This document shows, one piece after another, positions 28,001-30,780 of a stretch of 64,000 nt of DNA. The stretch is from an uncultured Bordetella sp. (GTDB lineage: Bacteria > Pseudomonadota > Gammaproteobacteria > Burkholderiales > SG8-41). Location: positions 45,124 to 109,123 of the forward strand of contig CAZHJU010000001.1 in NCBI GenBank assembly GCA_964533495.1, read 5' to 3'. Numbering within the stretch: the first letter of the stretch is position 1; each line of letters opens with the position of its first letter. The translations under genes were made by a program, and so were the position numbers. The notes beneath the pieces were generated by a model. It did not search any database, was not told where the DNA came from, and saw nothing but the letters and a program-made list of their open reading frames with translations.

Positions 28001-30780
28001 CAAAAACCCCGGCCGCGCCGGCAACGCGGCGCGGCAACGTCATCAGCGTCAGTCACGCGCGCGAGCACAACCTGAAAAACGTCAGCGTCGACATTCCGCG
28101 CGGAAAATTCACCGTGGTCACCGGCGTCTCGGGCTCCGGCAAGTCGACGCTGGCCTTCGACATCGTGTTCGCCGAGGGCCAGCGGCGCTACCTCGAATCG
28201 CTCAACGCCTACGCGCGCCAGTTCGTGCAGGCGGCGGCGCGACCCGAGGTCGACGCGATCTATGGCATCCCGCCGACCGTGGCGATCGAACAGCGCACCA
28301 GCCGCGGCGGTCGCCGCAGCACGGTGGCGACGCTGACCGAGATCTACCATTTCCTGCGCCTGCTCTACGTCAAGCTCGGCACCCAGTACTGCCCGGACTG
28401 CGAGGTGCCGATCGAGCCGCAGAGCGTCGAACAGATCGCCGCGAAGATCCTCCGCGAAAACCGCGGCGACCGCATCGGCCTGCTGGCGCCGCTGGTGGTC
28501 AGCCGCAAGGGCTATTACACCGACCTCGCCAAATGGGCCGCCGGCAAGGGTTACACCCACCTGCGCGTCGACGGCGAGTTCATCCCGACGGCCCCCTGGC
28601 CGCGGCTCGCGCGTTTCCAGGAGCACACCATCGAGCTGCCGGTGGCCGACCTCCGCGTGAAACCGGACAACGAAGCCGCGTTGCGCGCGGGCCTCGCCGC
28701 GGCGCTGGAATACGGCAAGGGCGTCGTCCACGTGCTGGGCGGCCTCGACACGCTGGCCGAGGCGATGGCAAAAAAGAATCCGCGGCTGATCCGATTCAGC
28801 GAAACCGTGTATTCGGTCAAGCGCGCCTGCCCCTGCTGCAACAAAAGCTTTCCCGAACTCGACCCGCGGCTGTTCTCCTACAACTCCAAGCACGGCTGGT
28901 GCCCGACCTGCTTCGGCACCGGCCTGTCGCTGGAGAAGGTGGACTGGGACGAGGAGCGGGAAAAGACCGGCACCGAAGAGCACGTGCTCGACTCCTGGCT
29001 CAACTGGCTGGAAGTGGACGAGCCCTGCCCCGACTGCCACGGCAAGCGACTCAATCCGACCGCGCTGGCGGTGCAGTACCGCAAGCGCTCGATCGCCGAG
29101 CTGGCCGCACTGCCCGTGGTGAAACTGGCGAAGGAATTCACGGACGTGTCGTTCAGCGGCCGCGAAGCGGCCATCGCGCGCGACATCGTCGCCGAGATCC
29201 GCAGCCGGCTGAGCTTTCTGGATGAAGTCGGGCTCGGCTACCTCGCGCTCGACCGCGCGGCGCCGACGCTGTCGGGCGGCGAGGCCCAGCGCATCCGCCT
29301 CGCCGCGCAGCTGGGCTCGAACCTGCGCGGCGTGGCCTACATCCTCGACGAGCCGACCATCGGCCTGCATCCGCGCGACAACCGCATCCTGCTCGACACG
29401 CTGGCGAGGCTGCAGACGAGAGGCAACACGCTGATCGTCGTCGAGCACGACGAGGACACCATCCGCCGCGCCGACCACGTGATCGACCTCGGCCCCGGCG
29501 CGGGAAGGCTCGGCGGCGCGGTGGTCGCCGAGGGCACGGCCGACGAGCTGCGCCGCAATCCGCAGTCGGTGACCGGACGCGCGCTGGCCGAGCCGCTGCG
29601 CCATCCGCTGCAGCCGCCGCGCAGGGTGGACGCGAAGACACCGTCGCTGGCGATCCGCGGCGCGAACCTGCACAACCTGCGGCGCGTGAACGCGCGCGTG
29701 CCGCTGGGCCGGCTGACCGTGGTCACCGGCGTCTCCGGCTCCGGCAAATCGACGCTGGCGCGCGACGTGCTGCACGCCAACCTGCAGCGCCTCGTCGGTG
29801 CGAGAGAAAAATCATCAATAAAAACAACATGTTGTGAGACTCTGTCAGGCTGGCAGCAGATTGGCCGCGTGCTCGAGGTGGACCAGACACCGATCGGCAA
29901 GACGCCGCGTTCCTGCCCCGCGACCTATGTCGGCTTCTGGGACAACATCCGCCGCCTCTATGCCGAAGCAACCGATGCGCGCATGCGCGGCTACACCGCG
30001 AGCCGCTTCTCATTCAACACCAAGGGCGGCCGTTGCGAGGCCTGCGAAGGCCAGGGCGTGCAGAAGATCGAGATGAGCTTCCTGCCCGACGTGAAAGTGC
30101 CCTGCGACGCCTGCGGCGGCGCGCGTTTCGACCCCGAGACGCTGTCGGTGAAGTTCAAGGACAAATCCATCGGCGACGTGCTGGCGATGAGCATCGACGA
30201 AGCGGTCGATTTCTTCGCGGCGCATCCGCAGATCCATCACGCGCTGCGCCTGCTGCAGGACGTCGGCCTCGGCTACCTGACGCTGGGCCAGCAGAGCCCG
30301 ACGCTGTCCGGCGGCGAGGCCCAGCGCATCAAGCTGGTCACCGAGCTGGCCAAGGTAAAGCCGTCCCTCACCCCCGGCCCCTCTCCCGAAGGGAGAGGGG
30401 AGGCAGATGTTTCCCTTCTCCCTTCGGGAGAAGGGTCAGGGATGAGGGCGGATGCCGGCGCGCGGCCAGGCCGCGGCGGCGCGCAGAAGCACACGCTGTA
30501 TGTGCTCGACGAGCCAACCGTGGGCCTGCACATGGCCGACGTGGAAAAGCTGATCCGCGTGCTGCACCGGCTGGTCGACGCCGGCAATTCGGTGGTGGTG
30601 ATCGAGCACAACCTCGACGTGATGGCCGAGGCCGACTGGATCATCGACCTCGGGCCCGAAGGCGGCGATGGCGGCGGGCGCATCGTCGCCGAGGGTCCGC
30701 CGGCGGAAGTGGCAAAAAGGGCCGCGCGCTCGCATACGGCACGCATACTCGGTGAGTTCCTGAAGGAGCGCGGCGCATGA
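25054..30780 (+). CDS. tandem-duplicated UvrA-family ABC ATPase (two UvrA-like halves, four nucleotide-binding modules)
   Basis: Uninterrupted 1908-aa ORF. Four Walker A motifs (GVSGSGKS[ST]) and four signatures (LSGGE[VA]QR). UvrA hallmarks occur twice: NNLKN/HNLKN, FDT/DIV..AEGQRRY, Cys-x2-Cys zinc modules and IDQxxIGxTxRSxPA[ST]Y. The second half starts near [18 protein letters not shown] (~28020). Confidence 0.85.
29803..29836 (-). repeat. AT-rich dispersed repeat, copy E, in frame inside the UvrA-like CDS
   Basis: The reverse complement reads cacaacatgTTGTTTTTATTGATgatttttctct. The 14-mer TTGTTTTTATTGAT is identical to copy D. On the plus strand it encodes [12 protein letters not shown] in a linker of the second UvrA half. 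Confidence 0.65.
30364..30449. repeat. REP-like double-hairpin element inserted in frame in the UvrA-like CDS
   Basis: Two perfect 10-bp stems: cccctctccc-gaa-gggagagggg (30378-30400) and cccttctccc-ttc-gggagaaggg (30413-30435). Outer arms are tccctcaccc / gggatgaggg. Translates as [29 protein letters not shown], between the LSGGEAQR signature and Walker B (LYVLDEPT). Confidence 0.75.

Follow-up and report, generated by a model that had tools for sequence, protein, structure and literature searches.

Short DNA words dispersed through bacterial genomes have been described in several forms. The uptake signal sequences (USS) of the Pasteurellaceae and the DNA uptake sequences (DUS) of the Neisseriaceae are short, clade-specific and over-represented, lie in coding and intergenic DNA in either orientation, arise by substitution and not by insertion, and are present in genome-maintenance genes. 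Findlay and Redfield reported that these words are recoded in preferred reading frames at poorly conserved residues, without indels and in both orientations, and counted 1471, 765 and 1892 copies per genome (PMC2817400). The binding sites of integration host factor (IHF), including those of repetitive IHF-binding palindromic elements (RIP), bacterial interspersed mosaic elements (BIME) and Correia-type repeats, are ~35 bp long and asymmetric, with an upstream A-tract and a CAA-N4-TT(A/G) block. They occur in any intergenic spacer, including those between convergent genes, and act on duplex DNA whatever the direction of transcription. The repetitive extragenic palindromic (REP) and BIME sequences are dispersed short repeats near gene ends, and on occasion they insert in frame. 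Chi and the FtsK-orienting polar sequences (KOPS) are clade-specific words tolerated in genes and kept by selection at the DNA level. An AT-rich motif that resembles each of these in part is described here from a 64-kb stretch of DNA of an uncultured Bordetella sp. (64,000 nt, referred to as the window), where one of its copies is a patch within the coding sequence of a tandem UvrA-like gene.

The motif is ~32-36 bp long and can be written AAAAATATCAATAAAAACAA-N3-4-STTAT, that is AAAAATATCAATAAAAACAA-N3-4-(G/C)TTAT. It is less frequent than USS and DUS by about ten-fold or more, lies mostly between genes, is AT-rich although its genome is GC-rich, and is conserved over a longer stretch. It differs from IHF sites in that the T of WATCAA is systematically an A, the copies are far more alike and no palindromic REP unit surrounds them. 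Unlike REP and BIME, the motif has no palindrome or hairpin, causes no change in length and carries no sign of transposition. Chi and KOPS are 5-8 nt, G-rich, strongly skewed to the leading strand and far denser, whereas strand use of the motif is mixed: the window holds four copies on the minus strand and two on the plus strand, while its GC skew keeps nearly one sign.

The patch in the UvrA-like gene is very probably a true copy of this family, made by in-place recoding of an existing loop and held under nucleotide constraint. The overall reading is of a recoded, clade-specific DNA word that would be read as duplex DNA by a protein, with an IHF-type site as the best fit; a probability of about one half is given to this reading as a whole.

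The mean G+C of the window is ~65%. Positions 29803-29839 (AGAGAAAAATCATCAATAAAAACAACATGTTGTGAGA) are low in G+C, and the place, reading frame and translation of the patch are those given by the initial annotation. The codons AGA GAA AAA TCA TCA ATA AAA ACA ACA TGT TGT GAG begin in frame at R1584 of the host protein. This protein matches the NCBIfam UvrA equivalogs NF001503 and TIGR00630 over several stretches, contains the Pfam domains UvrA_inter and UvrA_DNA-bind, and has UvrA chains as its best PDB matches. The patch encodes the loop that follows the Walker A helix in the fourth nucleotide-binding domain of the tandem UvrA. An AlphaFold2 model (mean predicted local distance difference test score, pLDDT, of 79.9) places it in a coil (query residues 102-113) between the Walker A helix (83-100) and a strand (114-116), with a lower pLDDT of 78 for the block. 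The loop had been described as variable, which agrees with this coil and with a sequence that is highly variable among orthologues.

Membership of the patch in a wider family is supported by several independent comparisons. The 11-mer AATAAAAACAA is found without mismatch at 17291(-), 29817(+), 38846(-) and 56173(-), and the site at 18462(-) differs from it in one position. These five matches compare to 0.09 expected, and none of 100 shuffles gave five. A scan for low-GC DNA (30-nt stretches with G+C of no more than 27%) returned nine islands in the 64 kb, of which six have one common sequence, and an independent repeat search of the window grouped four of these six as one family (D7). The longest exact match between the patch and the intergenic copies is 14 nt (P 0.0006-0.004 by composition-matched shuffles of the patch alone); the 14-mer ATCAATAAAAACAA is common to the patch and the copy at 56151..56209. 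In the literature this 14-mer retrieved one unrelated Mycoplasma paper.

An nhmmer profile was built from ten intergenic copies (five of the window, five of relatives) with the UvrA patch excluded, and 1.04 Mb of DNA (the window and 94 loci) was searched with it. Apart from its training copies and their orthologues in loci L090 and L091, the profile matched the UvrA patch, both of the window and of every carrier (L001, L002, L082-L086, L089, L090, L092 and L093); nothing else in the 1.04 Mb was matched. With the shuffles, this bears out the earlier claim that the patch is a real member of an AT-rich family. The patch contains the core AATAAAAACAA, with AAAAAT upstream at a 1-nt offset. Its 3′ block fits N3-4-(G/C)TT(A/G)Y, being CATG-TTGT in the window and TAGG-TTGT, ATGG-TTGC or CTGG-TTGC in relatives; intergenic copies have ATAG-TTAT or GTAC-TTAT. 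The patch of some relatives is closer to the intergenic copies than is that of the window, as in the comparison of L086 UvrA, AAAATTATCAATAAAAACAAATGGTTGCAAAGA, with the window copy at 18462, AAAATATCAATGAAAACAAATAGTTATGAAGA. The same patch recurs in independent NCBI, JGI and ENA assemblies (L002, L092 and L093; L084 and L085), which rules out the assembly artefact that the initial annotation had asked to be checked.

The origin of the patch is seen from the length and homology of the loop. It had been proposed that the element replaced, or was absorbed into, the loop, based on the equivalent linker of the first UvrA half. That linker is indeed 3 aa shorter (37 aa as against 40 aa) and of normal G+C (0.69), as described. 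The informative comparison, however, is with the second half of orthologues and not with the first half of the same protein. The segment that links Walker A to the (V/I)DQxPIG motif was extracted from 80 related loci. In the second half its length is 40 aa both in the window and in L081, and 41 aa for most orthologues, so that no length has been gained. The orthologous loops have the common pattern ..RRxKxxxPLxGCxxIxGW..., with which the 40 aa of the window align position by position. In the solved UvrA structure 9gxk, the segments NRASVKPGEHDLIKGI and ELNRASVKPGEHDLIKGI align with the window loop residue by residue and free of gaps, which makes S-[IV]-K-[TP] an old feature of the loop.

L081, the sister lineage, encodes the same 40-aa loop with GC-rich codons (agg cca gga aaa ccg gtc aaa cct gcc ggc tgc, including ‘PGKPVKPAGC’), which align one by one with those of the window. 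Compared with them, the AT-rich version carries the changes V→I (GTC→ATA), P→T (CCT→ACA) and P→S (CCG→TCA), has A or T in third positions throughout, and uses the rare A/T-ending codons AGA, ATA, TCA, ACA and AAA. The unchanged length, the homology to 9gxk and the alignment with L081 together indicate recoding by point substitution. The proposal of replacement or absorption is therefore not upheld.

The codon at 29830-29832 is TGT (Cys) in the window only; all relatives and nearly all orthologues encode Gly (GGT/GGC) here. This is the Gly of the ‘GC’ in the xGCxxIxGW part of the loop pattern. The change to TGT creates a perfect 12-nt palindrome, ACAACATGTTGT, within the motif (29824-29835).

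The patch is lineage-specific. Neither L081 nor any orthologue with an identity of 72% or below has it, and all orthologues farther away have normal G+C at this place, so the same AT-rich codons are not found in distant relatives. The set of carriers was enlarged by metagenome homologues and by syntenic loci, the latter giving L089, L090, L092 and L093. In a neighbour-joining tree built from the C-terminal 330 aa, for which the loop and a downstream insert were masked, 98% of bootstraps group the ten carrier lineages as monophyletic; L081 is their sister. The amino-acid identity of carriers falls to ~85%, and their third positions at identical residues agree in 59-73% of cases. The recoding occurred once, in an ancestor of at least ten sampled lineages, and is old and vertically inherited. 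The patch had also been offered as a natural marker of how the element spreads, a role that an old, vertically inherited and monophyletic character does not fill. What stands of the first interpretation is an in-frame, lineage-specific family member in a variable loop; insertion and the spread marker do not.

Over this period the nucleotides themselves have been retained. The sequence (T/G)CA AT(A/T) AAA ACA is kept across carriers, the core of the patch is the same in ten lineages, and the window, L001 and L002 have CATCAATAAAAACAA in common without any difference, in spite of changes at the synonymous sites on either side. At each of nine codon columns in a row, at least six of seven lineages have an A or T third base; elsewhere this holds for 14 of 323 columns. 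The third-position G+C (GC3) of the compared uvrA-like genes is 0.68-0.83. These alignments provide strong evidence for a constraint on the motif at the level of DNA.

Copies in other genes follow the same pattern. The consensus of the motif has stops in five of six frames, and its sole open frame reads K-I-S-I-K-T-I-T-Y-D. This frame is the one used in UvrA (SSIKT[TI]), in PolA and in a CCG-domain protein. Stop codons in all three antisense frames force the sense orientation inside genes. In PolA the full motif is in frame as ‘RILSIKTI(T/S)YD’ (L097 10745-10766(-), L156 2652-2673(-), L335 and L336). The PolA of other Betaproteobacteria reads ‘RHLG(V/L)KTITY(D/E)E’ at this place, and the GC-normal homologue L337 encodes RHLGVKTITYE in GC-rich codons. 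The codons aga att tta tca ata aaa aca ata act tat correspond to cgc cat ctc ggc gtg aaa acc atc acg tac, with six synonymous switches to rare codons and the replacements H→I, G→S and V→I, and the length is unchanged. The CCG-domain Fe-S protein has an in-frame copy, NSSIKTITYHDSC, SSIKTITYHDSC. The copy in an aldo-keto reductase uses a second, nearly open frame (‘ENINKNNSLLN’), which is also the frame used at the 3′ end of the α/β-hydrolase gene of the window (‘REKSKNINENK*’). Judged by these sequences, the same recoding took place independently in polA, the CCG-domain gene and the aldo-keto reductase gene.

One possible antisense copy was also seen. It would encode a hydrophobic N-terminus, KLLFLLMFLF, from a variant of the motif that lacks the TGA.

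A metagenome scan with the pattern ATYAATDAAAACAANNNSTTAT matched at least 120 loci. Among the matches listed, the distribution of G+C is bimodal, with 48 of 120 in the 0.6-0.7 bins; for 51 loci the G+C is 0.52 or higher, and 48 copies listed from these loci give the consensus A.AAAAATATCAATAAAAACAAttACTTATrA..att. The conserved span extends from -8 to +28 of the pattern start, with AAAAA upstream; the sequence on either side is not conserved and has normal G+C. In viral contigs this pattern gave only chance-type matches, in contigs of G+C 0.3-0.5, and 830 kb of more distant tandem-uvrA loci held no copy of the motif. By its distribution in these sequences the motif is a stand-alone word specific to one group of uncultured GC-rich Burkholderiales. 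Searches of the literature on AT-rich intragenic DNA and H-NS, on new uptake sequences and on dispersed IHF sites found nothing on the motif.

The motif is present at 6 copies per 64 kb in the window and at ~1 per 40 kb of the DNA that flanks the metagenome matches, as found with a profile of limited sensitivity. Regular spacing cannot be read from the intervals of ~9-11 kb seen in the window, since these are low in number and not independent of synteny. In syntenic relatives, whose fbp genes are 89-93% identical, the motif is found just after the tyrS stop codon in L087 and L089-L091 and just 5′ of the DUF218 gene in L087 and L092. L087 has a further copy 5′ of prpD.

In the window tyrS and fbp are adjacent, with a motif copy at their junction (38809-38859). 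In L089 (7035-9065) and L092 (8042-10001) Pyr_redox_2 and PMSR genes lie between tyrS and fbp on the other strand. A pair of small genes beside the tandem-uvrA (80 aa and 116 aa, no Pfam match) is duplicated in tandem in L089 (16224-17469) and L090 (9485-10730) and is single in L092 and L093.

The orientation of the motif to genes was determined with a home-made codon log-likelihood caller, checked on the known genes of the window only. Of 50 metagenome copies, 6 are tandem sense, 8 tandem antisense, 4 convergent, 3 divergent, 4 intragenic sense and 25 unresolved. Among these there is no bias of orientation to genes and no depletion from convergent spacers. A pair of sigma-70 hexamers 16-18 nt apart is absent from the patch and from four of the five intergenic copies of the window. 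The fifth copy, at 46322-46369, has two minus-strand sigma-70 sites in its vicinity: the rplM promoter, a strong match (11/12) situated beyond the element, and a weak match (9/12, 46377-46348) that overlaps the 3′ end of the copy. No terminator was found in the patch or the five intergenic copies, Rfam 15 gave no match in the whole window at the gathering score, and a search for tRNA and tmRNA found nothing. RNA folding of the six copies gave no stable hairpin and nothing beyond shuffles (z-scores of -0.9 to +1.5). The lack of an orientation preference, together with the absence of a sigma-70 promoter, a terminator or an RNA fold, makes it most likely that the motif is read as duplex DNA by a protein.

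The course of events begins with the ancestral UvrA loop, which was recoded in place by point substitutions that brought in rare A/T-ending codons as well as V→I and P→T. Within coding sequence the motif thus arises through directional point substitutions that run counter to both codon usage and GC pressure, and it is conserved thereafter. It would be read as double-stranded DNA by a predicted sequence-specific protein, independent of transcription, with selection for this binding overriding codon usage. Such a DNA-level protein reader is considered probable. The reader is predicted to be a DNA-bending, architectural protein of the IHF type, which is a tentative assignment only, a lead and not a result. 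The fit to an IHF-type site comes from the length of ~35 bp, the asymmetry, the A-tracts ~12 bp apart and the fixed AAACAA-N4-TT(A/G) block. The consensus derived from the IHF sites of E. coli is WATCAANNNNTTR. The AAACAA-N4-TT(A/G) block agrees with 8 of its 9 specified positions, in fixed register and in nearly all copies (estimated chance P ~0.2 in an AT-rich 36-mer), and the four variable bases of the motif fall where WATCAA-NNNN-TTR has its Ns.

Other registers and sites were considered and rejected. When the IHF consensus is placed in its classical register, on TATCAA, the TTR part does not match. The consensus sequences of Fur, ArgR, FNR, LexA, Zur, NarL, LytTR, Fis, Lrp and dif/XerCD do not fit the motif.

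Several points weigh against a duplex-DNA word read by an IHF-type protein. The T of WATCAA is always A in the motif, and a match as good as that observed has by rough estimate a P of ~0.2 in an AT-rich 36-mer; for these two reasons the IHF assignment stays a lead. The metagenome consensus is partly imposed by the search pattern. The density of ~1 per 10-40 kb is estimated from 64 kb and scattered loci. The orientation counts depend on the home-made caller, with 25 of the 50 contexts unresolved. Conservation of the amino acids S-I-K-T adds to that of the nucleotides. Finally, the reading offers no explanation for the retention of the uvrA-like site in every lineage.

On the present analysis an architectural site would rank first among the candidate functions and an uptake-like signal second. 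The motif would then be a self-recognition tag of an uncultured GC-rich Burkholderiales clade, ~32 nt long and AT-rich, which is preferred by a machinery of DNA uptake or recombination, accumulates across the genome by mutation and biased uptake (molecular drive), colonises tolerant coding DNA and has been driven into polA and the uvrA paralogue by biased uptake and recombination. Its manner of evolution is that of USS and DUS, with coding and non-coding copies, preferred frames, poorly conserved residues and no indels (PMC2817400). It is likewise clade-specific and shows no preferred orientation relative to genes, and of the five genes that carry it in frame, two (uvrA-like and polA) serve genome maintenance. 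The extended USS of Haemophilus is ~30 nt long with phased AT tracts, and the motif is similar. The density is the main difficulty, since USS and DUS occur ~1 per 1-2 kb as against ~1 per 10-40 kb for the motif (PMC2817400). Coding copies are also few (one of six in the window, with two more over 3′ gene ends, and ~4 of 50 in the metagenome) in comparison to 35-65% for USS and DUS, and the orthologous intergenic positions are conserved, which drive alone need not produce. An uptake signal is judged unlikely; if true, it would be the first uptake-sequence-type system outside the Pasteurellaceae and Neisseriaceae. A mobile non-coding repeat, inserted into the UvrA loop in frame or replacing part of it, would account for the likeness of the patch to the intergenic copies, and the gene does tolerate a real in-frame repeat insertion 530 nt downstream. 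This origin is nevertheless the least credible of all those considered. The loop, homologous to that of canonical UvrA and of L081, has the length found in orthologues, the copies have no inverted repeats or hairpin (z -0.9 to +1.5) and no conserved flanks, the carriers are monophyletic and vertically related, and the polA copy is also a codon-for-codon replacement.

The remaining alternatives place the function in RNA, translation or transcription. An unstructured, A-rich sense segment could act as an RNase E entry point, a site for Hfq or S1, or an enhancer of translation without a Shine-Dalgarno sequence. A sense-strand role was suggested by the window, where all six copies, like all in-frame copies, are sense to the adjacent or overlapping gene. 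The segments are indeed unstructured, and copies abut start codons without a Shine-Dalgarno sequence at DUF218 in three lineages and at prpD in L087. This candidate was set aside, as an improbable one, because the larger set has 8 tandem antisense copies to 6 sense and no depletion from convergent spacers, because stop codons leave only the sense orientation open within genes, and because Rfam gave no match. An operator or promoter of a regulon ranks just behind it; the copy within the uvrA-like gene would then serve the 3′ part of that gene as an internal promoter or a repressor site. AT-rich islands in GC-rich genomes are often regulatory, copies lie 5′ of fbp, DUF218 and prpD, and one is ~40-85 bp upstream of the -35 hexamer of the strong rplM promoter. 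The elements nevertheless contain no strong sigma-70-like hexamer pair, some lie between convergent genes, the flanking genes have no common function and no in-frame start follows the patch. A translational pause site, at which a cluster of rare codons slows the ribosome after the Walker A helix and the likeness to the islands is a coincidence of low complexity, is very improbable. The run of AGA, ATA, TCA and ACA in a gene of GC3 0.83, its position in a domain-internal loop and its conservation across lineages would all suit such a site. Against it, the exact nucleotides are kept and not merely codon rarity, a profile of untranslated intergenic copies finds only the patch in 1.04 Mb, and the same 30-nt string occurs in three unrelated proteins.

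A DNA word of ~30 nt, made repeatedly by recoding and held against codon usage and GC pressure in conserved genes across a clade, is direct evidence for strong selection or drive on DNA as such. Such behaviour has so far been documented mainly for the uptake sequences of two bacterial families. The motif provides a natural test for uptake-like dynamics or dispersed architectural sites in environmental Betaproteobacteria. It can be used as bait for the reader protein and may mark the contigs of the clade. A caution also follows for annotation: AT-rich patches in GC-rich genes are not insertions or foreign DNA by default, and orthologues should be compared first.

The coordinates of the host gene, of the window copies and of further coding copies are collected in Table 1.

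Table 1. Location and context of the motif copies and of the gene that carries the intragenic copy (window coordinates unless a locus is named).
Feature	Position	Strand	Remarks
Tandem (duplicated) UvrA-like ABC ATPase, 1908 aa	25054..30780	+	ORF (open reading frame) and translation
Intragenic AT-rich copy	29806..29835	+	A-tract GAAAAAT, CATCAAT, AAAAACAA, CATG, TTGT; sequence and profile match 29807-29833
Islands with common sequence	17262-17329(-), 18446-18499(-), 29801-29839(+), 38821-38882(-), 46322-46369(+), 56151-56209(-)		low-GC scan
Copy between convergent LysR gene (+, ends 17286) and LysR fragment (-, ends 17310)	17262..17329	-	both stop codons inside element; D7
Copy over last 10 codons and stop of α/β-hydrolase gene, ‘REKSKNINENK*’	18446..18499	-	
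Copy over tyrS stop (‘VIIK*’), upstream of fbp	38821..38882	-	
Copy in divergent spacer rplM (-)/DUF218 gene (+), abutting DUF218 start codon	46322..46369	+	
Copy between convergent MltA-like (+, ends 56115) and GAF/cyclase (-, ends 56288) genes	56151..56209	-	
Further coding copies (CCG-domain Fe-S protein, aldo-keto reductase, possible antisense)	L126 588-609(+); L130 3576-3597(-); L117 2134-2155(-)		

Two genes of the window take their last codons and stop from copies of the motif, namely the α/β-hydrolase gene (18458-18499) and tyrS (38859-38882). A LysR-type regulator at 17310-18356 (-), which has motif copies at both ends, is split into the ORFs 17736..18356 and 17310..17717. The first contains Pfam HTH_1 and positions 4-122 of LysR_substrate, and the second contains positions 134-205. 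The split is a probable frameshift or pseudogene.

The tandem-uvrA gene also contains a GC-rich nested palindrome at 30365-30448, in frame, with arms of 37 nt that are 86% complementary and 10 nt apart. Within the last domain it separates the ABC signature from Walker B, and it adds ~26 aa, which have a pLDDT below 50 and are predicted to be disordered. No second copy was present among the longest repeats of the 64-kb window. The site is occupied in the window, L081 and L001, three lineages that are not each other's closest relatives, and the nearest relatives are without it. Its presence in L081 and L001 but not in nearest relatives indicates a real insertion of a REP-like element, which is possibly recurrent.

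Over 33001-36000 the AT skew is strongly negative (-0.22 to -0.32), which is not the case elsewhere in the window. Direct repeats of 100-140 nt and 70-81% identity, D4/D5, are found at 1-139/1071-1209 and 412-513/1635-1736/12408-12509, and these are probably paralogous genes.

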